DNA from: an uncultured virus (IMG/VR IMGVR_UViG_3300028327_000658)
Lineage: Duplodnaviria > Heunggongvirae > Uroviricota > Caudoviricetes
IMG/VR virus record: IMGVR_UViG_3300028327_000658
Strand: one strand, 5' to 3'
Length of the DNA: 64,000 nucleotides
Each line of letters begins with the position of its first letter. Positions within the stretch are counted from its first letter, which is position 1. This document shows, piece after piece, positions 31,687 through 64,000 of the stretch. A program made the translations under genes and the position numbers. Under the pieces are notes generated by a model. That model had not been told where the DNA came from and searched no databases. It worked only from the letters and a program-made list of their open reading frames with translations.

Positions 31687-34209
31687 TCAATTAAACACAT
31701 ACTCCACCTTTTTTGACTCGCAATTCAACCGCAACCGCGCCGGAAAAACCTTTCCGCCCTTTTTGACCGACACAAACCCATCTATCTTATCCCGCGTCTC
31801 CCCGCTCAAAAACAGTTCCCTCACCACCGCCTCGGTCACATTCGGACTTCCGTTTTTATATATAACAAACCCGCACTTCGCCCTCTCACCGCAACACGCA
31901 AATCCGCTGTCGTTTTCCACCATAGGCGAACCGCAAAATTTACATTTCAAATCCAGCTTCTTTACCTCTCCCCCGACAGCCGACTCCAACTTACCGCTCT
32001 TATCATCCAAATACACCATTATATCATACTTTTTACCGGCCTTGCTTACCAAACCGGATACTTTCACCTGTTCGCCGCGAAACAGCTTCTCTAACATTTT
32101 TCTGTTGACCGCGTTATCTTTACCCCTAAACTTTTTATATACAATAAACTCACAGCCGCTATAATCATACGTCCCTTGCTCATTCTTCACACTCTTACGG
32201 TTTTCACAAACAAAGACACTCTCCGTCTCGAATATCGCCCCGCCGCACTTCCGGCATTTCAATCCCGTGTCTTCACCGCGTTTTTCGGCCCACGGCCACA
32301 CCACCTTGCCGACCAGCGGCCGCATATCTTCCGTAAATTCTTTGCAAAACGCTCCAAATCCACGGCAAAATTCCTCCAAACTAAGCTCGCCGCACTCGAC
32401 CAATTTCAGCTGTAACTCCATTTCCGCTGTAATTTCCGGTGTTTTCAGCTTAAACGGCATCACCTCTTCGATCAGTTTACGCCCTTTTTCCGTTGACCGA
32501 TAGCTGCCGTCTTCTTCGACGATATATCCGACATCTTTGAGCGTGTCAGGGAACGACGACTGCGTCGCCGGTGTCCCTATGCCTTGCGTTTCCGACAGCA
32601 TCTTCTTATATTTCGGGTTAATCACATCCTTGCCGCATTTCTGCATGGCCGTCACCAGCGTCGCTCCGATATAATATTTCGGCTTCGAACGCTTAATTCT
32701 CGGTAAATCCATATCATCTAACCCCGCCAGCAAACCACGTAACTTTTCCTCGTTCAGCCGTTCCGACATCTCCTCCACTGCTTCGCCTTGCTCGTCGCTT
32801 TCTTCTTCTTGTTTCAATCCGCGCGTCTGTAACAACGCGACATAATCCAAATACCCGCGCTCCAAATTCACCTTGACAGATGCCCGGAAAACTGCCGGTT
32901 CCGCCCATTCTATCGCCGCCGGCTCCCCCGCTCTATCCTCTTCTATCTCCAATTTATATTGCAAATACCGATTCGACGCCATGAACGACACTATCAATCG
33001 ATTTTTAATCAATTCGTACAAATTCAAGTGATCCTTTGTAAATTCCTCTTTTTTAGCACTCTTCAACGCCTCAACCGACACACCGGTCGGCGCTATCGCC
33101 GTATGCGCGGACTCCGTATTTTTCACACAATCCGGTTTCACCGTTTCAGCCACCAAATACTTCCGTTGGTCAGCGTCCGCCAGCTCCCGCACCAAACCGT
33201 GATATATCGCCAAATCGCTCTCAGGCATACACGATGAATCTGTCCTCGGATAAGTCACAAGTTTCCACTCGTACAAATCCTGCAACAACGCATCCGTCTT
33301 TTTCAACGGGAGTTTCAACTCCTTATTCGCCGCTTTCTGCAAATCGGCTATATTAAACGGATGCGGAGGATTCTTTATTCCCTCGGCTTCCGAAAATTCC
33401 TTCAACTTAAACTTCCTGCCCTCCAGCATTTTCAACACCGACTGCAAATCAGACTCGCTTTCAAACTTCGTTTCCTTGCCCCGACAGTACAAAAACTTTA
33501 TCCCTGCCCACTTCCCGCGCAACTGATAATAAAACGATTCCTTATATCCCTCCACCTCCTTATCCCGATCAACTATCATCCGCAACACCGTCGTCTGCAC
33601 ACGGCCGACGGATAATCCGTACTCCCCGGTCACGGCGGCTGCCGCCCGACTGCCTGTCATACCGACTTCCCAATCCGCCAACGTACGGCCGGTACACGCA
33701 TCCGCCAGATTTTTGTACTCAGACAAATCTTTCATGGACGACCAGCTCTTATCCAAATCGCTGTCAGTCAAACTCTTGGCCCACAGCCGCAACATCTTAG
33801 GCCGCTCCATTTTGTAAAAACCGAATAACCTCGAAAATATCCCTTGACCCTCGCGGTCGGGGTCAGTCGCGCAAATGACTGTGTCGCACTGACTCGCCAA
33901 TTCACATATTAAATGGCCGCGATCTTCTTTGGATTTATCCGTAAATTTATACGGCAACCTGCTCAAATCTTCCAGCAATATAGGCAAATACTTAAATCCC
34001 GTACCCTTTTCTCTATACTTCTTGTCATAGTCGCCAGGCAACGGTAAACCAAGCAAATGCCCGAAACACCACGTTATATAGTAGTTCGCCGACTCGAAAT
34101 ATCCCGACTTCTTCGCAAACTTCTCGCCGCCGACGTTACGCTCCACCATTTGCACGTAAATCTCGGCCTGAGAGGGCTTTTCAGCCACTAATAACGTTTT
34201 TCCTGACAT
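31687..34209 (-). CDS. topB: DNA topoisomerase III (type IA) with C-terminal zinc-ribbon repeats
   Basis: AEKPS, TWCFGHLL, ATDPDREG, SVGRVQT, catalytic LVTYPRTDS, GIGTPAT. Confidence 0.96.
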   Translation of the reverse strand: MSGKTLLVAEKPSQAEIYVQMVERNVGGEKFAKKSGYFESANYYITWCFGHLLGLPLPGDYDKKYREKGTGFKYLPILLEDLSRLPYKFTDKSKEDRGHLICELASQCDTVICATDPDREGQGIFSRLFGFYKMERPKMLRLWAKSLTDSDLDKSWSSMKDLSEYKNLADACTGRTLADWEVGMTGSRAAAAVTGEYGLSVGRVQTTVLRMIVDRDKEVEGYKESFYYQLRGKWAGIKFLYCRGKETKFESESDLQSVLKMLEGRKFKLKEFSEAEGIKNPPHPFNIADLQKAANKELKLPLKKTDALLQDLYEWKLVTYPRTDSSCMPESDLAIYHGLVRELADADQRKYLVAETVKPDCVKNTESAHTAIAPTGVSVEALKSAKKEEFTKDHLNLYELIKNRLIVSFMASNRYLQYKLEIEEDRAGEPAAIEWAEPAVFRASVKVNLERGYLDYVALLQTRGLKQEEESDEQGEAVEEMSERLNEEKLRGLLAGLDDMDLPRIKRSKPKYYIGATLVTAMQKCGKDVINPKYKKMLSETQGIGTPATQSSFPDTLKDVGYIVEEDGSYRSTEKGRKLIEEVMPFKLKTPEITAEMELQLKLVECGELSLEEFCRGFGAFCKEFTEDMRPLVGKVVWPWAEKRGEDTGLKCRKCGGAIFETESVFVCENRKSVKNEQGTYDYSGCEFIVYKKFRGKDNAVNRKMLEKLFRGEQVKVSGLVSKAGKKYDIMVYLDDKSGKLESAVGGEVKKLDLKCKFCGSPMVENDSGFACCGERAKCGFVIYKNGSPNVTEAVVRELFLSGETRDKIDGFVSVKKGGKVFPARLRLNCESKKVEYVFN
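32811..32841 (-). repeat. Solitary type I-C CRISPR-repeat-like element inside topB
   Basis: GTCGCGTTGTTACAGACGCGCGGATTGAAAC; 26/31 identical to the 27183 copy, with the same GATTAT 5' flank; reads VALLQTRGLK. Confidence 0.6.
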
Positions 34210-34940: not shown

Positions 34941-35360
34941 CTAACGGCCCGATCCCGTTTTAGTGACCCATTCATGCACCATCAACGGAAAAAATCGCGA
35001 CAACGCCCCGAAATAACGCTTCCCTATATCCAAAACATACCTATAATCCTGCAAATACATACGGACTCCGTACGTCTCGACTTTCATATCGCGATGACGG
35101 TCAAGCGCGTTCGACCACATAAACCCCAAATGCGCCTCCGCGTCCCCGCCGCTTTCCAGCATCCGCCGCCAATCCGACACGACGCGATGCCACATATCCG
35201 GGCCCTTCACGTTCCATCCGGCGCAACGCGCCAACACCGCCTTGTAATCTTCCTTCCCGACGTTAATCCGACGCGCGACCTTCGACTTGCCCCCGTCAAT
35301 ATCCGACAGGCGGTCTTCATAATCAACTATTACTGGCATGGCTCCCTCCGCACTGCGCAT
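34941..35360 (-). CDS. Hypothetical protein
   Basis: 139-aa ORF; SD GGAGG before the alternative start MPVIVD. Confidence 0.5.
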   Translation of the reverse strand: MRSAEGAMPVIVDYEDRLSDIDGGKSKVARRINVGKEDYKAVLARCAGWNVKGPDMWHRVVSDWRRMLESGGDAEAHLGFMWSNALDRHRDMKVETYGVRMYLQDYRYVLDIGKRYFGALSRFFPLMVHEWVTKTGSGR

Positions 35361-35371
35361 TTATAAACAAA

Positions 35372-35406
35372 AAGCCGGGAAAGGCTTTTTATGCCCCTCC
35401 CGGCTT
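35372..35406 (-). terminator. Intrinsic terminator
   Basis: AAGCCGGGA...TCCCGGCTT stem followed by a T-rich run on the minus strand, downstream of the 35459 gene. Confidence 0.65.
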
Positions 35407-35458
35407 ATAATATATATATTATACCGCGCAAAAACAACTTTTAACGCCTACGCCGCCC

Positions 35459-37661: not shown

Positions 37662-38154
37662 AACCCGTTTCTAAGCACGAAAACCGCGTTTTTGACCCTG
37701 TTTTGACCGCCTCTCACGCCGCCGAATCCGATGAAAACCGGCTCCGGGCGGTCTTCCCGCGCTTTCCTCGCGGCGTGATGCGCGTCTTCAGCCCTAATTT
37801 ATTTTTAATATTTTTTGGGGACGGGGACATTCCTGTCCCCGTAACGCCCGTTGGGTAGCTCGCCGCCGCCGGCGGCGAGATTCAGGTTTCTTAGTCTTAA
37901 TTATTACAGCAACAATCAGCAATAAAATTTTTCGGTACCCGATTCCCGCTCGCAAAGTACCATTTATCCTATGCGTCAACATAAACATGTTGACGCAAAT
38001 ACAGTCTACGAAAGAAAACCGTCCGCTTTCGATGCATTATCTTATTTTATCATAACGGCTGCCGCCACGGTTCCCTTTCGTGCGCCGGCCGTTGGCGGGG
38101 CGGGTTCACCGCCCTGCCCTCCCCTAAACTTTTTTAAAATAATTAAAAAAATAG

Positions 38155-38271
38155 TTGCTTTTTTAAGAAAAATATATTATATTATATATATGGGACGTGA
38201 AGAAAAAATATTAAAAAATACTGAAAAAAAATAAAAAAACTATTGACTTTTGAACAAAAATATATTATATT
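38155..38271 (+). promoter_or_regulatory. Two tandem sigma70-like promoters
   Basis: TTGCTT-17-TATATT (38155-38183) and TTGACT-17-TATATT (38243-38271). Confidence 0.7.
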
Positions 38272-43588: not shown

Positions 43589-43617
43589 TTGCTTTTTTAC
43601 AAAAAAAATATTATATT
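43589..43617 (+). promoter_or_regulatory. rep promoter
   Basis: TTGCTT-17-TATATT. Confidence 0.65.
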
Positions 43618-52625: not shown

Positions 52626-52731
52626 TTGCTTTTTTACCAAAAATATATTATATTGTATACACGTAAAATATTTTAAATTGTAACAAAAAAAGACAAAAAA
52701 ACTTGCTTTTTTATCAAAAACATGTTATATT
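52626..52731 (+). promoter_or_regulatory. Two tandem sigma70-like promoters
   Basis: TTGCTT-17-TATATT at 52626-52654 and 52703-52731. Confidence 0.7.
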
Positions 52732-52773: not shown

Positions 52774-53316
52774 ATGCAAATCAAAACAGATAAAGAATGG
52801 TTTGCCATAAAAGAGGTTAGTGCTATTGTCGAAAGGAGCATACCGACTATCCGTAAATGGATTGACAACGGTATACTGCCGGCAGTCAAATACGGTGTAC
52901 ACTATCAAATTAGAAAAAACGAACTCGAAACATTTATGCAGCATACTATGCCTACTATCGGGAATCGCGATAACATAACTAAAACGAGCTTAAAAAATTA
53001 CTATACTATTGAAGATGTGTCCAAAATGTACGCTGTAAAAGAAGAGACCATCAGAAGATGGATTCGAGAAAACAAATTACCCGCACGTAAAAGCGGAAGG
53101 ACATACTTATTAGAAAAAAATGTAATAAGTAACTACTTTCGTAACACAAATACAGACAACTATTATACTGTAGAAGAAGTATCTTCGCTCAGTAATATAA
53201 AAGATTATACTATTAGAAAATTAATCCGTGAAAAGAAGATACCCGCATTTAAAAGCGGAAAGATATATTTATTAGAAAAAAACGTAATAAGCACCATTAT
53301 TGCAATGTGTAAATAG
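52774..53316 (+). CDS. DNA-binding protein with three tandem excisionase-type (HTH_17) domains
   Basis: Three repeats of (W/Y)(F/Y)x(I/V)xEVS....TIR(K/R)(W/L)I...LPA.K.G..Y. Confidence 0.85.
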   Translation: MQIKTDKEWFAIKEVSAIVERSIPTIRKWIDNGILPAVKYGVHYQIRKNELETFMQHTMPTIGNRDNITKTSLKNYYTIEDVSKMYAVKEETIRRWIRENKLPARKSGRTYLLEKNVISNYFRNTNTDNYYTVEEVSSLSNIKDYTIRKLIREKKIPAFKSGKIYLLEKNVISTIIAMCK

Positions 53317-55936: not shown

Positions 55937-58900
55937 TTAATCATCAAATTCAATACCTGTCGATACTGTTTGTACCGTTTTTCCTGTCGTTAGCTCATTT
56001 TCGATATTCTTCACATAACTACTGACCGCTTCTTGCACGTCTTTATTCAAAGAATAAAATTCGGCTTCTACACGTAGAAAATCAAAATTTGACCTTGTTT
56101 TTGAATCCAGGGAGTTCGATAAACAAACCGTTTTACCATCTTTTTGCAGACAATTTACAGTATAAAGGCCTGTCGAAACATCCCGCTTGATCTGTATATC
56201 GCCGATCATAGATAAAGGCTTTCCCGAATGCAAAAAGTCGGCTTTGCTCACCATACCGCTTTTATCAACTTGTATATTCCATTCACGCCCATCATGCCCC
56301 TTATGCAATGCCTGAACAATAGTCCCGCACAGTCCGAGCGGAGTCGCTTTTTTAACCAAAATCGTGTTAGCGATAGCCAATTTTGTTATATTATGAAGAT
56401 TAAAATTATGAACCTTTTTTACATAGTCTACAACATTGTCTACTGTTTTCATGGTAAACCGTGACATCCGACTGTCACAAGCTTCCCGTAAATCAGACAT
56501 CATATAGTTTAGACGGGCTGCTTTCTTATCGACCGATGTGATCCACTTTGAGCTCTCCCAGGTTTTATACGATTCAGACACATTTTGCAAACAATTCAAT
56601 AGGGGTTCATTTGCAGCCGAACTGAATTCACGTAACCCAATATCTTTAACAACTTGCAAACATTTAGACGTATCCTGATACAATGAGGCCAATGTTCCAG
56701 AAACCTCGTTATAGTCGCTCCATTTTTCGTCCGTTTGCATACGCTTAGCATAAGTAGACGGCACTGCATAATCAAATCCCGTTTCACTCTTTAAATAATC
56801 TCTCAATACACAAACCTTATTATAATCCCTCAAAAACGTGTCGCTTTTTACGGCATTATGACGTTGCATGTTCAAATTACACCCATCCGACTTTAAACTC
56901 AGCGAATCAACGCCGATAACCACATCCGCCGCGACCCGCTTGCCCATAATCTTATCGACTTCGGCCCCAAATTCAGGAAACCTGTCACACATCCGTTCCC
57001 TTAAATCCATAAAAGCGCAAGCACTCTCTACACTATCAAATACCTGATTGCGATCAATCAAAAATTTTACATCTCTATATCCCTGATCCGTAACACGAAA
57101 ATCATAAAAATCAAAGAATGCTCCGACATCCTCAATCCGCGATCCATAATCCATCATTAACTGACAAACAGCATTAAAATCACGATCTAACATATCACGA
57201 GACGTGCTGTTATAATCTACCGTGCTATCCGAGGGAAGTTGTTGCAAAGGTTTAAATTTCTTAGCTTCATATTCCTGATTTTTTGCAGAAACGATAGTCG
57301 CAAGTCTATCCGCATCTTTAATTAATAATTCATTCGCATCCTTACAATCCCCATATATTTCGGTTTCAAGTTCACAATAAACATCGTTATCTACCATAAG
57401 TTTTACGTACAAATCTACAGCGGATTCATGCCCGGCTATATCATTATCTAACGCGAGAATCAACGGCTGTACCGGCTGCCTGTTATGAACCATATCCACG
57501 AATCTATCAATATTGCCGACGCTGCCCAAAGCCACCGCTTCGCCGCCGACAGACATTATACTCAGAGCGTCAATTTCGCCTTCAACAACAAATATCGGCT
57601 TATCCGACGTATATAACGCATTGCGGTTAAATACCTGAACTGTCCCAAACTTCCGGTAACGATCAGCCGGAGAAGCGTCAGCCGCAACATTTCGGGCAAC
57701 AAACGAATCATTCCCCGTAGGAACAACCAATGTTTGCCACATCTTGCTGCCCGTCCCATACTTGAAATAAGGGTCATATCCGACGTTAAACCGACGTAAA
57801 ACATCTATGTTAAGACTGCGGGTCTGCGGATAATCCGTATCGCCAAGCCGCTCGGCACACTTCTCAAAATACTTAGCCATCCGTGGAGTAGGCTGAATAT
57901 TAAACCGGATGCCGTTGTTTTTTGTCGGTAGGGTAGGGGAGACATCCGGCTCCGGTGTCGGTTTTTCTGCCATTTGTTTGCCCGAAAGCAAATCTTTGGC
58001 CGCATTTTGCGCTAATTCATCAAAAGTCATATCCCGTACCTGTTCTGGCGCCAATTCATGCACCATAGCTTTACGTTCCTTATCAAAAAGACGCTCCGAA
58101 ATCCACTGCCATAGGTCATTAAGACACGCTTTCACCCGCTCGCCGAACGTCTGCCACCGCTCGCCGTCGAATATCGCCTCGCCATTGTTGCCTATCGCAA
58201 ACGCCGCCGCTTCCTCCGCTAATTGTACGTCGTTTAAGTCTTTGTACGCCTCATTATTACGTAAACTTCTGTAAACGTCCGAATCCTGCGCGGCCTCTAC
58301 AAATCTATCGTATAACGGCTTATTATCTCGTTTAACCATATCTAACCACAAATGCCCGTATTCGTGGATCGGCGTATTTGCGTTCATTTTGTTCGGGTCG
58401 AGGTAAATTTTGCTGTCCTCGGTGGCGAAACCGTATACCTCGCCCTTCGGCGTGGACATAAGACGTACGTGCTCCGCAATCTCTATCGCAGCATCGTCGA
58501 AGACCACGTAGTTGCAGCTGCCATCGTGACTGCCATTAGACAGATAGCCGGTCGGGTACTGAATGCCGTCGATACCGGCACGGAGAAGGAATGCGGAAGC
58601 AGCTTTTGGAGAGCCAAGAACCATTGATAATTCATGTTTATAAAGCCACTCGCCGTCCCGCATACCACCGGGGAACATCAGTTCTCCCGTGGATTCATCA
58701 CGATAAAACAAACGCTCAAGGCTTTCTTTTGCGGCTTGTTTCATGATTTGCTGAAGCTGACTGGCTGTCGGCGGCTCGTCCCACCTGATAAAGTTTAGCT
58801 CATCCGCTGTCTTATCACCGTGGATTTTGACTTCATAAAGATTATGAGCAGACGGAGGCATTTCAACCTGGAGGGTCTTGTTATCTATAAGCGCAAGCCA

Positions 58901-61900
58901 ATCTTCGTTATTCTCGGAAACAATATAATCTCTTGCCTGTTTAATATCCCCGCTATAAAAACGAATAATATTTGCAAGCTCTCGTTTAAGAGTACCGCTA
59001 CTATTATCCACCTCTTCCCCGTCAATAAACACTTGAATAGGTAGAGTAGTACGACTCAATGTCTTCGCGTACCCCTCCGCAATCCCTCGCAAATCCGTAA
59101 AATATAACCCGAACCCATAAACCAGCGTCCCTTCCCCCGTTCCTATGTGGGCCGTCGAGAATCTGTCAAAAGCATGCGGGCTGCCATGCCAGACGTTCAT
59201 GTACCGGGCGGCCGGCTCCTCGCCGAACTCCTCCTCCAGCCGCTTCCGCATCGCCTCCGCGTCCGTGATCACGTCCTTAGCCAGCCCGGTCTTGCCCAGC
59301 CGGTCCAGCAGCTGGCCGAACTCTTTGGGCGGGATCGGGGTAGGGGAGTAGTCTCCAGAAAAAAAATTATTTTTTTTCTTGCTTTTTTCAGGAAAATTTA
59401 GTATATTATTATTAGAGTTTGGCTCTGTTGACACTTTCATTTGATCATGAAAGGTGGACATTGTGGGCCTTTGGTCGAAGCGAATATCATCGGATACGGT
59501 GATCATAACTTCAGGAGTCAGACTCTTTTTTATTGTTTTTTCTTTACTCCAAGTATAAGCAGTCCATACTTCTAAAGCATTATTTTTAATTATCGCATCC
59601 ACCACATGAAGTGTTCCATCCGCATATTGTTTTGATATGACCAAAGTATCATAACCACCTCGTTTAGTTTTACTTCCTTTCCTGATATAGTCAGGATGTG
59701 CCAAAACATCAGGTATAAGCCCAATATTTTCTAGTGTCATAGGGATTTGACCATCGTTTAACTCCTTTGTAATATCAGATCCATGCGTATCATATATGTG
59801 CTTTAAACCTTTTAACGTAATTATTTGTTTCGAAATAGATTTACCATAAAATGCGTTAACAGCATCTCTCACCTTGTTAGAAATCGGCCCTAGTTCTATC
59901 TCATTCTTACCATTTATATTCCGATGAGTTTTCTTTATTATTGTATTCCAAATATTAGATAACCAATTTTTGATTACCTCTGGTACAGTTGCTCTCGCTT
60001 CCTCCATAGTTAATAGGTTCTTTGCATCCGTAGACGTTCCATCACGTCGTGCAAACCTAATATTCTGGCGTTCTACTGCCGAAACGTCATAATCAGCACT
60101 CGGTGCCCACACAAACCCCGCCCCGGCACGTTTAAGAGACTCTAACTTTGATTTAATATATCGATTAGATGAAGCATTCAACCCCCCCTCAAACCATAAA
60201 TGACCCTTCTCACGGGCCGACACGTAAGACACCTCCCCTTTTCCGGTATCTTTAAACCAAACATTATCCAATACACATAATTTATGGCCAGAATGTACCC
60301 CGTCCCTTGCTACATCCAACGTTTTATCGTACATCTTTATATCGTTAGTCACAAACGCCACGGCTTCACCTCCATACTCCCGCATCTTTTGATAAACATT
60401 TTGATAATGCAGTTGAGACTCCGTAAGCGGAACCCAGCCCAAAATGTCGTTAGTCATCGACAATACCAACATTGCGGTTTTCTTTTCGTTATGAATATAT
60501 GCCGCACCTAGCTTCGCTATCTCTTGCGGACCGTGCGTACTAACACGAGGATGATTCAAATATAAAGAATTTCCACCGTCATAACTCATTTCCTCAACAT
60601 CCAAATTCGGATGTATAAAAGAAAACTTGTCATGGTCTAATATTATATGTCCCATAAATCTCGTCCATAAATTACCTAAATCTTGAGCTAATACCGATGT
60701 CGCGTGTTTATCCGCATCTGACGGCGTAACATCACCTGACGGATGATTATGCATCACGCAAAATCCTTTTGCATTTAACCTATTCATTCGGTCACGTATA
60801 TTATAAACTCCTCGCGCCGGTGTCTCCGCATCATACACCAAACTTATCCCTGTCAAACCGACTGAAACCATGTTATGACCCGCTATTGCGGTACATTCCT
60901 TGTCCGCAAAGTATATATGATGCGTCTGCTCCAAATGCGGATGACGATACACCGAAAACAACGCCGCTAAATCTTCCGGCGTTTCAACTATCTGGCCCCT
61001 CATATCTATACGCTTGCTAAGCCGCCATTCATCGGCTAAACGGGGCGATAACGAATATATTTCACGATTAACTTCTTCATCTATCAATTTTACTCGGTCT
61101 GCGCCGCCGAATTTAATATCCATTGCCGCAGCGGACAATCCCATATCTTCTAAAGGCCGACGTTGGTAACGGTCAATATGTTCTAACGTTTCGTCTACGC
61201 TATGACTCGCTAAATAAACCTCATTCTCGCGCCGACCCCAATTTACACGTATTCCTCCTAAATTACGCTCTATCTGAAGCAAACGGCTGCGGGCATCCGA
61301 CGCGGAAACATCCAGCCCGCATAATTGAAATGGATTAGAGCGATCCGCTAAAAACTCATCAATATCAGAATGTCCAGGCATTCTATATACATTTTTCGGA
61401 GCATGGAAGTACGTGTCTATCCCGTAAAGCAGCACTCCGTCCTCCACGTCCACAACATCACGGTACAATCCCGTCAAACGCTCCTTCGCATCCTCTTTAT
61501 CTTCTTTCATTACTTTTATAAAACCTATATCCGAAAACGGCGGAACGCTGACCAACTTGCTCAAATTCTGAAACATCATCTCGCTGTTCACATAACGCTC
61601 GCCGTCCGTTTTCAACCGCTGTTTTACATCATTCACGTCAAAACGCTGACACAGCGGCAACCGCGTCAACGCCCAGTTCGCCAGCCGGTTATTATACGCA
61701 AGATTCATCGCCATCATACCGGCGCATAACGGACGATGCGGCCCGCCATGCCGATTAACCCAGTCACACAAACCCGTAACCCCGCCTTGATCATATATTA
61801 GTCCCAAATCTTTGAAAAACAGCTTAAAATTCTTATCCGAATAAAATTTCTGAAACTCCTTCCATGCTTTATCGCCCCAACTGGAGCCAAAACGACGTGA

Positions 61901-61984
61901 TAACAAGAAAAAATGATCAAACTCCGGCATAGACGGTATGTTTTTGCCGCGATTAAATTCATTCAAACCACGTGTAGCGTCCAT
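55937..61984 (-). CDS. Polyvalent protein (~2015 aa): DUF4007-like, JAB/RadC, PBECR RNase, ART, zincin peptidase, Toprim primase domains
   Basis: HNHPSGDVTPSDAD (JAB); LKHIYDTHG..GQIPMT..IPDVLAHPD (PBECR); WHGSPH.FDRF..GFGLYFT..GIDGIQY..NYVVFD (ART); TPIHEYGHLW (HExxH); VVEGEIDALS..ALDND..KDANE (Toprim). Start set at ATG 61984 (SD AGGAG). Confidence 0.88.
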   Translation of the reverse strand: MDATRGLNEFNRGKNIPSMPEFDHFFLLSRRFGSSWGDKAWKEFQKFYSDKNFKLFFKDLGLIYDQGGVTGLCDWVNRHGGPHRPLCAGMMAMNLAYNNRLANWALTRLPLCQRFDVNDVKQRLKTDGERYVNSEMMFQNLSKLVSVPPFSDIGFIKVMKEDKEDAKERLTGLYRDVVDVEDGVLLYGIDTYFHAPKNVYRMPGHSDIDEFLADRSNPFQLCGLDVSASDARSRLLQIERNLGGIRVNWGRRENEVYLASHSVDETLEHIDRYQRRPLEDMGLSAAAMDIKFGGADRVKLIDEEVNREIYSLSPRLADEWRLSKRIDMRGQIVETPEDLAALFSVYRHPHLEQTHHIYFADKECTAIAGHNMVSVGLTGISLVYDAETPARGVYNIRDRMNRLNAKGFCVMHNHPSGDVTPSDADKHATSVLAQDLGNLWTRFMGHIILDHDKFSFIHPNLDVEEMSYDGGNSLYLNHPRVSTHGPQEIAKLGAAYIHNEKKTAMLVLSMTNDILGWVPLTESQLHYQNVYQKMREYGGEAVAFVTNDIKMYDKTLDVARDGVHSGHKLCVLDNVWFKDTGKGEVSYVSAREKGHLWFEGGLNASSNRYIKSKLESLKRAGAGFVWAPSADYDVSAVERQNIRFARRDGTSTDAKNLLTMEEARATVPEVIKNWLSNIWNTIIKKTHRNINGKNEIELGPISNKVRDAVNAFYGKSISKQIITLKGLKHIYDTHGSDITKELNDGQIPMTLENIGLIPDVLAHPDYIRKGSKTKRGGYDTLVISKQYADGTLHVVDAIIKNNALEVWTAYTWSKEKTIKKSLTPEVMITVSDDIRFDQRPTMSTFHDQMKVSTEPNSNNNILNFPEKSKKKNNFFSGDYSPTPIPPKEFGQLLDRLGKTGLAKDVITDAEAMRKRLEEEFGEEPAARYMNVWHGSPHAFDRFSTAHIGTGEGTLVYGFGLYFTDLRGIAEGYAKTLSRTTLPIQVFIDGEEVDNSSGTLKRELANIIRFYSGDIKQARDYIVSENNEDWLALIDNKTLQVEMPPSAHNLYEVKIHGDKTADELNFIRWDEPPTASQLQQIMKQAAKESLERLFYRDESTGELMFPGGMRDGEWLYKHELSMVLGSPKAASAFLLRAGIDGIQYPTGYLSNGSHDGSCNYVVFDDAAIEIAEHVRLMSTPKGEVYGFATEDSKIYLDPNKMNANTPIHEYGHLWLDMVKRDNKPLYDRFVEAAQDSDVYRSLRNNEAYKDLNDVQLAEEAAAFAIGNNGEAIFDGERWQTFGERVKACLNDLWQWISERLFDKERKAMVHELAPEQVRDMTFDELAQNAAKDLLSGKQMAEKPTPEPDVSPTLPTKNNGIRFNIQPTPRMAKYFEKCAERLGDTDYPQTRSLNIDVLRRFNVGYDPYFKYGTGSKMWQTLVVPTGNDSFVARNVAADASPADRYRKFGTVQVFNRNALYTSDKPIFVVEGEIDALSIMSVGGEAVALGSVGNIDRFVDMVHNRQPVQPLILALDNDIAGHESAVDLYVKLMVDNDVYCELETEIYGDCKDANELLIKDADRLATIVSAKNQEYEAKKFKPLQQLPSDSTVDYNSTSRDMLDRDFNAVCQLMMDYGSRIEDVGAFFDFYDFRVTDQGYRDVKFLIDRNQVFDSVESACAFMDLRERMCDRFPEFGAEVDKIMGKRVAADVVIGVDSLSLKSDGCNLNMQRHNAVKSDTFLRDYNKVCVLRDYLKSETGFDYAVPSTYAKRMQTDEKWSDYNEVSGTLASLYQDTSKCLQVVKDIGLREFSSAANEPLLNCLQNVSESYKTWESSKWITSVDKKAARLNYMMSDLREACDSRMSRFTMKTVDNVVDYVKKVHNFNLHNITKLAIANTILVKKATPLGLCGTIVQALHKGHDGREWNIQVDKSGMVSKADFLHSGKPLSMIGDIQIKRDVSTGLYTVNCLQKDGKTVCLSNSLDSKTRSNFDFLRVEAEFYSLNKDVQEAVSSYVKNIENELTTGKTVQTVSTGIEFDD
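59379..59407 (+). promoter_or_regulatory. Antisense promoter inside the polyvalent gene
   Basis: TTGCTT-17-TATATT, the same boxes and spacing as the intergenic promoters at 38155, 43589, 52626 and 52703. Confidence 0.7.
59414..59531 (+). ncRNA. Putative structured small RNA (~118 nt) antisense to the linker after the PBECR domain
   Basis: Starts 7 nt after the -10 box. 5' AGAGTTTGGCTC pairs with 3' GAGTCAGACTCT (12 bp, 2 G-U), followed by a T run; internal hairpins at 59434-59453 and 59486-59503. Confidence 0.65.
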
Positions 61985-61997
61985 TCCATATCTCCTA

Positions 61998-64000
61998 TCA
62001 ATTAAACGATATATCGTTATTATTTGACACGCGCTGACTCGGTTTCGCCGCTTCATTGCTATAACTTAGTGTCAGTTCCTTCATTCCAAGTTCAAGTTCC
62101 CGATTCAACGCATACACCTCAACCCGCGCCTTTACCTCCGCTTCCGGTACAGACAGCTTAACAACTCCGGTCATCTTATCCTCGCCGTCGCAACGATACA
62201 CTCCATATATAGGGTTCCCCTTACCCGAACCGTCTCCGCTGTTCAAAATCTTAACACCGTAATCATTAACCTCCAAATCTCCCAAATCCATATTAATTTC
62301 GTTTGTGCCGCAGCCTCTACCTATCAAATTTATATTATCTTTGTCCGCAACCCTCGTTCCTCCATGCATACGGCGGTACTCCATAGCATATTCCCCGGTA
62401 CAATTCATGTTCCAGTCGTACCTCGGCGACCGCTCCAAATGATTAGCCGCGCCGTCATAAACCCGTATCGGCGGAACCCCGGATTCCACAGCTTTCGACA
62501 TCGCCGACTTGCAACTTTCGCTTAAACGTACATTATATACCCCCTCAATCGCTTGAATTGCCTCTCCCGCGTTCCGTACCGCCTCTTGCGAGCTGACAAA
62601 CCGCTCGTACAATATGCCGCGCATCATCCCCTTGTCATAATCCAATCGGTCACTCCAAACCCGAACCGTCTGATGGTTTTGGCATTCTTCCGTCACATAT
62701 TCGTCCAAAACATCACACGCCGTCTCGAATTTCTTTGCCACGGCGGTATTATGTTTTCCGGCCAACTCCAGCGCATAGCCCTTTACCTCATTATATAAAT
62801 CACCTATCCGCTCCGCTTCTGCCATGTATCCAGGAAAACTAAAACCTTTATGTTCCGACCGAATGTCTTTAACTTCTCCTTCGTGCCCGGCCAACCCGAA
62901 CTTTCGTTCAAAATCTCTATACTTCTTAAATTCCTTCTCGCAATCGCAAATAACAGGTTTTACAATATGACGGTTTAATCCGGCATCTTTACACACCAAG
63001 CTGACCATTGCATCATCCACTACCGCGCGTTCATACACAATATCCGACAATCGGCCATAAACCGCCCCACGGCCTTTTAACGTCAATTCCGCGCTATCAG
63101 TTTCTTCCGCAAAAGCCAAATAGCCGCGATCCGCCAACGACTCCAGCATCTCTACAGTTTTATCAATGCTCGCGTAACGCAATACCGTACATGTCCCTTT
63201 ACCTTCCAGCTCTACTAATACCGCTAACTCCATATCTGACAACGGGTTATCTACGTTAACCTCGATATTATCGCTATCGTCAACATCGATACTATCCGCA
63301 TCTACATCACGTTTTTCGGCAGACGTTTCTAATATCTGTCCAACTTTTTTGTTATCCAAAACAAAAACATCTTTGGCCTCCACCCCGTTCATCTCTTTCT
63401 CAATACTGTCCCCTAAATCATCCTCAAAGCGGCCGTGTTCCTTAAAATACTCAAAACGGGCATAAAAACGTTGTTCAGCCGCTTGAATCTCTTCCCGCGT
63501 CATATCACGCAAACCGTCCCACGGAAATTCATACTCCGCTCCGTTAAACTTTTTGCCTACATCCCCGCCCAACAATTTCAATACCTCTCCTAACTTCACC
63601 CGTTTCTCCTGCAATTCCGTTTCTTTCGAAAATCCGCCGCTAAACGACTTACAAAAATCAAGCTCTTTCTGATATTCCTGCACACGTTTCTTGAACACAT
63701 TTAACGTAGTGTCCGTCCGATCATAAACCATATTATGTATTCGCCGACAAAGCCCGACTTCGTCCGTATCGAGAGCCAGCGGGTCAGAGTGTACTTCGTG
63801 CCCCAACCCGTTGCTTCCCACAGATTTAAAATAATATGAACGATAATAGCTCCCGCCGCTGGCGGCGACCGACTCTAACGAGATCCGTGCATTGCCGTAT
63901 GTGCCCAACTCTATGCTGTTGCTTTCCCGCGACATACTGAATTTTTTCAGCGCATCCTTTATTAACGTCCCGGCTTCCTTGCGGGCTGACTCCGTCCCCG
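61998..64000 (-). CDS. C-terminal part of a large DarB-like (SNF2 helicase/methylase-type) protein, truncated by the window edge
   Basis: Frame is open to base 64000 (…RKEAGTLIKDAL…). LCRRIHNM…FSKETELQEKRVKLGEVLKLL resembles the post-helicase region of DarB-like proteins; catalytic motifs are not in the window. Confidence 0.55.
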   Translation of the reverse strand, partial: GTESARKEAGTLIKDALKKFSMSRESNSIELGTYGNARISLESVAASGGSYYRSYYFKSVGSNGLGHEVHSDPLALDTDEVGLCRRIHNMVYDRTDTTLNVFKKRVQEYQKELDFCKSFSGGFSKETELQEKRVKLGEVLKLLGGDVGKKFNGAEYEFPWDGLRDMTREEIQAAEQRFYARFEYFKEHGRFEDDLGDSIEKEMNGVEAKDVFVLDNKKVGQILETSAEKRDVDADSIDVDDSDNIEVNVDNPLSDMELAVLVELEGKGTCTVLRYASIDKTVEMLESLADRGYLAFAEETDSAELTLKGRGAVYGRLSDIVYERAVVDDAMVSLVCKDAGLNRHIVKPVICDCEKEFKKYRDFERKFGLAGHEGEVKDIRSEHKGFSFPGYMAEAERIGDLYNEVKGYALELAGKHNTAVAKKFETACDVLDEYVTEECQNHQTVRVWSDRLDYDKGMMRGILYERFVSSQEAVRNAGEAIQAIEGVYNVRLSESCKSAMSKAVESGVPPIRVYDGAANHLERSPRYDWNMNCTGEYAMEYRRMHGGTRVADKDNINLIGRGCGTNEINMDLGDLEVNDYGVKILNSGDGSGKGNPIYGVYRCDGEDKMTGVVKLSVPEAEVKARVEVYALNRELELGMKELTLSYSNEAAKPSQRVSNNNDISFN

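Follow-up and report, generated by a model that had tools for sequence, protein, structure and literature searches.

Among the 3'-overlapping cis-antisense type I toxin–antitoxin systems are txpA/RatA and bsrG/SR4 of Bacillus subtilis. In Escherichia coli, SymE/SymR combines an RNA antitoxin with a nuclease toxin, SymR overlapping the 5' end of symE. The type III antitoxins (ToxIN, CptIN and TenpIN) are tandem repeat arrays that lie 5' of the toxin on the same strand and are processed by it, and FinP, a constitutive antisense RNA of plasmids, targets the 5' leader of the regulator traJ and damps a transfer gene in established cells, with a burst in new recipients. The yonT type I system of B. 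subtilis has SR6 as its antisense RNA (abstract of PMC5848175; reviews, PMC4147584 and PMC8594479), and RalR/RalA of E. coli likewise sets an RNA antitoxin against a nuclease toxin (abstract of PMC4041452). Here, we describe a predicted small RNA gene with a promoter of its own that lies antisense across the 3' coding end of a PBECR3 domain, inside the open reading frame (ORF) of a polyvalent protein. It was found in 64,000 nucleotides of DNA from an uncultured virus (IMG/VR record IMGVR_UViG_3300028327_000658), the whole of which is referred to as the window. PBECR3 is characterized in passages of Iyer, Burroughs, Anand, de Souza and Aravind 2017 (PMC5512222) as a predicted RNase of solo and polyvalent proteins from elements with type IV secretion systems (T4SS), with extensive module shuffling.

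The polyvalent ORF is uninterrupted, as had been stated in an earlier note on this DNA, with PBECR3 at 59534–59860 directly before the RNA gene. Two relative loci with DNA, L001 and L002, were obtained from a metagenome scan, and comparison of the three sequences indicates that a predicted promoter–RNA–U-tract unit is conserved on the opposite strand across the 3' coding end of the domain and is linked to PBECR3 both physically and evolutionarily. Like yonT/SR6, txpA/RatA and bsrG/SR4, the locus would present a structured, convergent antisense RNA of about 100 nt, made from a constitutive promoter, over the 3' end of a toxin, with a terminator-like U-tract, all of this being predicted here. 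Unlike that group, the toxin would be a BECR-fold RNase domain of about 165 amino acids (aa) instead of a small hydrophobic peptide, the RNA is predicted to form a four-way junction with both ends paired, and its gene and promoter lie inside a continuing ORF of 2039 aa. Regarding the features of type I systems, cis-antisense overlap with the PBECR3 mRNA was found in the window, L001 and L002, and a small RNA with its own promoter is predicted from a promoter, fold and U-tract kept in three of three loci; the typical toxin, a hydrophobic peptide shorter than 60 aa, which is not universal in type I, is absent.

With SymE/SymR and RalR/RalA, the locus would share the pairing of an RNA antitoxin with a toxin that cuts nucleic acids, as proposed here. 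The folds of those toxins are unrelated to BECR and neither is embedded in a multidomain effector; moreover, RalA is encoded in trans and has 16 nt of complementarity, whereas the present RNA is cis-antisense. The earlier note had drawn an analogy with type III systems, which share with this locus a structured RNA proposed to neutralise an endoribonuclease. In the defining features that were tested, the analogy fails: a repeat scan revealed no tandem or direct repeat family within 59414–59531, the RNA is a single non-repetitive unit located antisense to and downstream of the toxin gene in all three loci, and the toxin is PBECR3 and not ToxN, AbiQ, CptN or TenpN. By analogy, a cis-antisense RNA over the 3' end of a toxin would fit type I better than type III. 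Like FinP, the RNA is plasmid-borne and is proposed to act as a brake in established cells; unlike FinP, it is encoded midway along an effector ORF, and solo RNase genes outside plasmids have the unit as well. What is new here is the pairing of an RNA-antitoxin-like cis-antisense gene with a predicted BECR RNase and its nesting in a polyvalent ORF. The word "antisense" occurs zero times in the main text of PMC5512222, and its passages name no immunity factor for PBECR. For another BECR family, parts of a 2026 preprint on BECR classification name DUF4926 as the protein partner, with mention of neither an RNA nor the word "antisense", and the accessible portions of the literature that mentions PBECR do not describe an RNA partner. 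Literature on polyvalent proteins with antisense or small RNAs in conjugative elements contained nothing pertinent among the matches listed. The features of the locus are summarized in Table 1.

Table 1. Positions of the polyvalent ORF, the PBECR3 cassette and the predicted antisense RNA gene in the window.
Feature	Position	Strand	Basis
Polyvalent protein ORF, 2039 aa, uninterrupted	55937–62056	−	ORF calling and Pfam; collinear ortholog P0158
Low-GC (guanine–cytosine) cassette: PBECR3 module, antisense RNA gene and promoter	59355–60001	−	33.7% GC; GC at third codon positions (GC3) 0.20–0.26
PBECR3 (PF18812), predicted BECR-fold RNase domain	59534–59860 (aa 733–841)	−	Pfam, 38.6 bits, cut-off 30
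Perfect A/T palindrome AGAAAAAAAAT-T-ATTTTTTTTCT, touching the −35 box	59357–59379	+	Repeat scan; coincides with sharp GC boundary
Antisense promoter: −35 TTGCTT (59379–59384), 17-nt spacer, −10 TATATT (59402–59407)	59379–59407	+	Exact motif family
Predicted small RNA, about 113–118 nt; start inferred 6–7 nt past the −10 box	59414–59531	+	Folding, covariance model, covariation
Closing helix, 5' arm; pairs with 59514–59526	59414–59426	+	Fold; two-sided changes in 9 of 13 pairs; paired cells, 100%
Arm P1: hairpin CTTTCAT/ATGAAAG (59434–59453) and conserved motif UGUUGACA	59427–59459	+	Fold, covariation
Small hairpin P2 (GGCC UUU GGUC); conserved junction motif CAUUGUG just 5'	59466–59476	+	Fold
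Arm P3: hairpin AUCAUCG-GAUA-CGGUGAU (59486–59503)	59477–59512	+	Fold; one compensatory pair
Closing helix, 3' arm, and U-tract (59526–59531)	59514–59531	+	Fold; CUUUUUU kept in 3 of 3 loci

The earlier note found the boxes and spacing of this promoter to be the same as in the plasmid's intergenic ones, and four exact intergenic copies bear this out. The motif TTGCTT-N17-TATATT occurs five times in the 64-kb window, always on the plus strand, and four of these copies (38155, 43589, 52626 and 52703) are intergenic and 5' of plus-strand genes, the fifth being the antisense promoter. Allowing for up to one mismatch, eight sites were counted against an expectation of 0.55 ± 0.67, a number reached in none of 100 shuffles. 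Within this family, the likeness is not limited to the boxes but takes in TTGCTTTTTT, a run of A in the spacer and A/T-rich DNA upstream. When the region was scanned for generic sigma-70 promoters, 24 sites were counted against 18.7 ± 4.2, which is within chance, so the specific family motif alone was taken as promoter evidence. L001 and L002 each have exactly one copy of the motif, in the homologous position on the strand opposite PBECR3, whereas 0 of 23 unrelated loci (L003–L025) have one. Boxes and spacing are unchanged among the window, L001 and L002, with at least 8 of the 17 spacer bases differing and the promoter occupying three different coding states. The A/T palindrome is likely an UP-like element, and L001 has a similar palindrome at the same place relative to its promoter.

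The members of the promoter family on the plus strand are found at 38155–38183, 38243–38271, 43589–43617, 52626–52654 and 52703–52731. They share a layout of an A-rich upstream stretch, TTGCTTTTTT or TTGACTTTTG, an A-run spacer and TATATTATATT, and drive plus-strand genes. One tandem pair precedes the small ORFs at 38.3 kb, and another two copies precede a gene at 52774 that resembles helix-turn-helix or excisionase genes. One-mismatch variants were located at 32584 (+), 34860 (−) and 35409 (−).

Downstream of the promoter, the plus strand of 59414–59531 has a predicted minimum free energy of −43.9 kcal/mol (z = −5.14), and none of 200 shuffles was equally stable. In a 118-nt sliding scan of both strands of the whole window (12,778 windows), it ranked second for stability relative to GC. 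The predicted architecture is a four-way junction with a closing helix of 13 bp, including two G·U pairs, three internal arms and a U-tract that overlaps the Lys-Lys codons right after the PBECR3 domain. The promoter, the hairpins CTTTCAT/ATGAAAG and ATCATCG/CGGTGAT and the U-tract at 59526–59531 all lie where the earlier note had placed them; the stem that it saw joining the two ends is present too, at 13 bp with two G·U pairs instead of 12 bp, and a third small hairpin was found in addition. The note had also considered a tRNA-like RNA, which was not borne out, as ARAGORN detected no tRNA or tmRNA gene in the whole window and Rfam gave no relevant match. Specifically, Rfam 15 returned just two spurious minus-strand matches for 58500–60500 (SNORD57, E 7.8; Mnt IRES, E 1.9), with zero matches to the tRNA clan at E ≤ 10. 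The putative RNA is a structured, uncatalogued family with clear covariation and without an Rfam entry.

An exhaustive profile-free search with aa 686–905 retrieved 13 proteins at E ≤ 1e-10 among 1.84 billion representatives. The closest relatives, P0003 (57% identity) and P0009 (39%), align through the linker, and P0004, P0005, P0006 and P0010 stop directly after the PBECR3 domain. A word-index protein search with the same residues returned the window's own protein alone. Among plasmids and phages, blastn with 59000–60200 and tblastn with the PBECR3 module gave zero matches; in viral contigs, protein-pattern scans confirmed zero relatives and DNA-pattern scans had no matches; and in genome contigs, none of 123 protein-pattern matches was confirmed as a relative. 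The DNA pattern CTTTGGTC-N9-13-CATCGGNNACGGTG matched genome contigs at 23 loci, all by chance, and 0 of 23 fit the covariance model. The metagenome scan gave two relative loci with DNA: L001, a solo 179-aa PBECR3 gene with 54% aa identity to the window module, and L002, which encodes P0009 (38% aa identity) and is devoid of the N-terminal His region.

In both L001 and L002, AGA stands 6–7 nt past the promoter and leads into a long closing helix; internal hairpins and CUUUUUU complete the unit, which lies antisense over the 3' coding end of PBECR3. Folded as single sequences, they adopt the same predicted architecture as the window (L002, −46.0 kcal/mol, z −5.33; L001, −34.0 kcal/mol, z −3.00), and the 13-bp closing helix followed by U6–7 is kept in three of three loci. 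A covariance model built from the window and L002 recovered L001 with 22.9 bits (E 7e-4 in 197 kb), and detected neither a further copy in the window nor a match among the unrelated pattern loci L003–L025 (0 of 23). In the three-sequence alignment, 97.9% of 94 cells hold standard pairs, compared with 34–54% when partners are slid by 1–3 columns. Fourteen of the 34 base pairs are changed on both sides, a number that none of 500 shuffles reached, and six of 34 are so between the window and L002 alone. The closing helix accounts for 9 of its 13 pairs being compensatory, with 100% of cells paired. In three of three loci with DNA, the promoter, the fold and the U-tract are all kept, and the helices covary. 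On the antisense strand, all 16 wobble cells are G·U and two cells are unpaired; since these wobbles would be C·A mismatches on the mRNA strand, the RNA would be read from the plus strand of the window.

These data bear on the view that the locus encodes no functional RNA and that the repeats act at the DNA level or in the sense mRNA, as a recombination junction, an in-frame insertion resembling miniature inverted-repeat transposable elements, or an mRNA pause or stability element, with the promoter as an A/T-rich by-product. In-frame palindromic insertions are known in Rickettsia, the element stands exactly at the module junction of a mosaic gene, and its sense strand also folds below shuffles; the helix sequences, however, differ between homologs and still pair, unlike copies of a mobile repeat, and no second copy exists in the window or the 23 unrelated loci. 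A/T-rich DNA does give promoter-like sites by chance, yet exact boxes and spacing persist in three lineages through the spacer divergence and the three coding states noted above, the wobble pairs are all G·U on the antisense strand, and the U-tract comes straight after the helix in three of three loci. We consider this view very improbable.

Further metagenome contigs may belong to the same family. One contig of 346 nt matches 59449–59514 with six differences and then diverges, and several match 59359–59412 before diverging; they are taken as hints of additional members. Contigs aligned to the window showed no joints, and a depth spike at 59362–59435 corresponds to low-complexity 31-mers.

The linker after the domain had been interpreted as a read-out of the RNA gene, which largely holds. 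Third-codon-position identity between the window and L002 is 0.73–0.80 in the RNA region (59405–59545) versus 0.27–0.53 in the PBECR3 domain, with aa identity being similar in the two or lower in the domain. An indel of 1 nt, located after the −10 box and before the helix, places the promoter boxes in another codon phase in L002, and the peptides over the promoter are unrelated (NNNILNFPEKSKKK in the window vs INKYTKNSGNKQDES in L002) with boxes and spacing unchanged. In L001, the PBECR3 stop codon (734–736) falls inside the RNA gene, which makes the latter independent of the protein frame, and the promoter (800–828) is non-coding and outside the ORF. On this comparison, the constraint on the putative RNA region is one on nucleic acid and not on peptide, and the linker is largely a by-product of the RNA gene.

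Two other interpretations of the DNA were discarded. The plus strand at 59441–59575 contains a 44-codon ORF with a hydrophobic tail, within the predicted RNA and running past the U-tract. As a type I toxin peptide, this small ORF (59441/59447–59575) was rejected: its ATG is located in a hairpin arm that L002 does not have, the minus-strand ORFs of L001 and L002 are unrelated, and the ORF is without counterpart there. It is probably not a gene. A single-strand-DNA promoter of the Frpo type was likewise rejected, as the promoter boxes are outside the folded part.

The candidate toxin would be a soluble BECR-fold domain of about 165 aa and a predicted RNase. Within the module, H68 is invariant and H73 nearly invariant among 27 sequences, and T147 is invariant among seven close homologs. 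Passages of Iyer 2017 (PMC5512222) describe the PBECR site as a conserved histidine of the N-terminal helix with a C-terminal Thr/Ser, and the conservation of H68 and H73 fits this His-based site. The structure model of the module has a mean predicted local distance difference test score (pLDDT) of 94.4. Its best match by VIA-align was 7vd7_A, the toxin chain of a Salmonella toxin–antitoxin pair (Z 6.5, root-mean-square deviation 3.9, 89 aligned), followed by BrnT (Z 6.3), CdiA-CT (Z 5.8 and 5.5, the latter being CdiA-CT NC101) and the colicin D tRNase (Z 5.1). At E ≤ 0.001, no PDB entry matched the module model in Foldseek. The Z values are middling and the top rows are consistently BECR toxins, which points to a BECR fold in the model.

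The element that carries the polyvalent gene is conjugative and plasmid-like in content (TrbI/TrbL/TraG-type T4SS genes, TrwC relaxase, coupling protein, ParA and topoisomerase III), and its DNA was seen solely in termite-gut metagenomes. Beside PBECR3 (733–841), the Pfam domains of the ORF comprise RadC/JAB (aa 420–480), a weak ART-PolyVal (953–1003) and Toprim (1488–1578). The cassette with PBECR3, RNA gene and promoter stands out from the rest of the ORF, which has 45% GC, and from the adjoining 59100–59354, which has 62.7% GC (GC3 0.92 for aa 901–950). Its start coincides with the N-terminus that solo PBECR3 proteins have in common (..MEEA..VPE), and it ends just past the promoter and the A/T palindrome, so that it equals a whole L001-type unit (GC 35.3% in L001). 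These borders suggest that a solo gene with its RNA gene is a cassette that was spliced in frame into the polyvalent protein. The ortholog P0158 (2393 aa) is collinear with the window protein over residues 29–668 (46% identity), 883–1414 (40%) and 1372–2020 (64%), and its slot 669–882 holds MuF_C (PF18819) in place of PBECR3. The proposal that RNase and RNA move as one cassette is in keeping with the 34% GC block, the solo unit of L001 and the different module in the slot of the ortholog. MuF_C is itself a PBECR-type domain according to its Pfam description and passages of Iyer et al. 2017 (PMC5512222).

A single boundary was noted at 59355, where GC3 jumps from 0.20–0.26 (aa 701–850) to 0.92 (aa 901–950) within one ORF, implying that modules were recently drawn from very different genomic backgrounds. 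The contexts of the unit, which adjoins PBECR3 in three of three loci with DNA, are a plasmid polyvalent gene, a solo gene next to an IS-like (insertion sequence) gene start, and a remnant between unrelated ORFs. In L001, no candidate protein antitoxin is adjacent among nearby genes, and a terminator-like hairpin follows the upstream gene. Downstream of the solo cassette, L001 has a short tandem array of AGAGCAG units (1085–1140) and a gene start (1202–1263) with the first residues MSEANKRRIYTKEFKQDAL, which presumably belongs to an IS3-type transposase orfA. In L002 (1437–1900), PBECR3 is without its N-terminal His-bearing half, the antisense promoter and RNA fold are intact, and the flanking unrelated ORFs look chromosomal.

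The explanation that we prefer as a whole, with a probability of roughly 0.55, is a portable cassette of PBECR3 and antisense RNA in which the RNA serves as antidote or repressor, acting preferably in a type I-like manner. PBECR3 and the RNA gene would form a two-gene cassette that exists alone in L001 and was spliced in frame into the polyvalent gene of the plasmid, whose ORF would read through RNA gene and promoter, the linker peptide being mostly a by-product. RNA made from the housekeeping-type promoter would pair with the mRNA directly 3' of the RNase domain, where the two are fully complementary; duplex cleavage or mRNA decay, possibly leaving a message without a stop codon (a speculative step), would follow, and RNase output would be kept low where the element is established. 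The RNA thus probably keeps the RNase in check, judging from its conserved placement. A type I-like action is favoured because the RNA is inherently complementary to the mRNA and lies across the 3' end in every locus, and because the layout matches the 3'-overlapping yonT/SR6 and L001 has no adjacent candidate protein antitoxin.

Alternatively, the folded RNA would act on the protein, binding PBECR3 or serving as a decoy substrate, with its antisense complementarity being incidental. We find this unlikely. The structure is conserved beyond the need of complementarity, in covarying helices, but regulatory antisense RNAs also retain conserved stem-loops. Tied to the 3' end in every locus, the RNA has the position that cis-antisense control predicts, whereas one that binds protein could sit anywhere. 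The junction motifs UGUUGACA and CAUUGUG are common to the window and L001, non-coding parts of the latter included, and the helix that locks the two RNA ends together suggests a stable RNA. Colicin D (Z 5.1) and CdiA-CT NC101 (Z 5.5), BECR toxins that cleave tRNA, are among the best structural matches of the domain; ARAGORN found no tRNA-like gene and Rfam no match. An inhibitor of this kind would protect donors from polyvalent protein already made; the type III features tested are nonetheless missing, as the RNA is free of tandem repeats and lies antisense and downstream of a toxin that is not ToxN-like.

Several observations weigh against the preferred type I-like cassette. All six listed runs are termite-gut metagenomes of DNA type, so expression of the RNA and its start and end or termination point are inferred, as is any effect on the RNase, and the present evidence fits action at the mRNA level and at the protein level alike. 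Recognition of the promoter by the host is deduced from its recurrence 5' of plasmid genes. A scan for consensus rho-independent terminators makes no call at the 3' end of the RNA because the loop there is a multibranch and the scan admits loops of 3–8 nt; a terminator made of the closing helix is atypical in any case. The complementary (sense) strand of 59414–59531 folds with −26.2 kcal/mol (z = −2.84), and the sense strands of the other loci also beat shuffles (z −4.13 and −2.91), the two strands being equal in L001. Covariation rests on three DNA sequences, in an alignment that was fitted to the model structure and leans towards it. The cassette may be recent in the plasmid, in which case its intactness need not reflect selection in the polyvalent context. 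Finally, the RNA gene of L002 is intact though the N-terminal His motif of PBECR3 is lost, and the RNA may act independently of an active RNase, or the decay may be recent; this truncated RNase beside an intact RNA gene is the main observation uneasy with a pure antidote role.

The same state of L002, with RNA retained and the N-terminal catalytic region gone, would suit a real RNA gene that is no antidote to PBECR3, be it a hitch-hiking small RNA with other targets, a FinP-like brake on the polyvalent gene or a passenger of the cassette. The unameliorated GC of the cassette suggests recent acquisition and points the same way, as do the other metagenome contigs that carry the promoter segment 59359–59412 and then diverge. 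Such a role is distinctly unlikely, given that the RNA adjoins PBECR3 in three very different contexts, which argues for a functional tie. In P0158 (residues 660–905), the peptide SNIIHSSEKSKGENNFFSG resembles the promoter read-out NNILNFPEKSKKKNNFFSG of the window, suggesting that the promoter segment persists beside MuF_C; MuF_C, however, is PBECR-type as well, in passages of PMC5512222, and P0158 may be of the same design. From this peptide likeness, an analogous antisense promoter and RNA gene may be predicted behind MuF_C.

In phages and conjugative elements, a polyvalent protein combines several toxin-like enzymes in a single polypeptide, and tolerance by the owner cell is unaddressed in the passages of PMC5512222. 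If the preferred portable cassette with its type I-like antidote is correct, an RNA gene that travels with an RNase module would constitute a concrete mechanism of immunity or control and extend RNA antitoxins to BECR-fold RNases. A wider proposition holds that PBECR-type modules come with a portable gene for RNA immunity, placed in antisense orientation within the linker after the domain, whose four-way-junction RNA neutralises the RNase in the owner cell through pseudo-substrate binding or message cut-off and is absent from the recipient or rival. We rather doubt it; if true, it would provide a general RNA-based answer to self-intoxication by polyvalent effectors and a toxin–antitoxin class whose antitoxin gene is nested in the frame of the toxin and swapped with the domain. 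Linker peptides between modules can be shadows of opposite-strand genes, an overlap that domain annotation and protein-only searches miss.

Two further structured regions were noted elsewhere in the window. The most stable fold of the window relative to GC lies on the minus strand at 35340–35440, where a promoter-like TTGTTT-N17-TATATT is followed by a hairpin (AAGCCGGGA...UCCCGGCUU) with a U-run, the ribosome site GGAGGGAG and the ATG of the ORF at 34941–35360; this element might serve as leader or attenuator, or yield a very short RNA. The plus strand at 37760–38110 is GC-rich and strongly folding, with several top-ranked windows. It lies just 5' of the tandem promoters, within a gene-poor gap that separates a 700-aa ORF from the 38.3-kb genes, and is possibly an origin of transfer or a single-strand initiation region.

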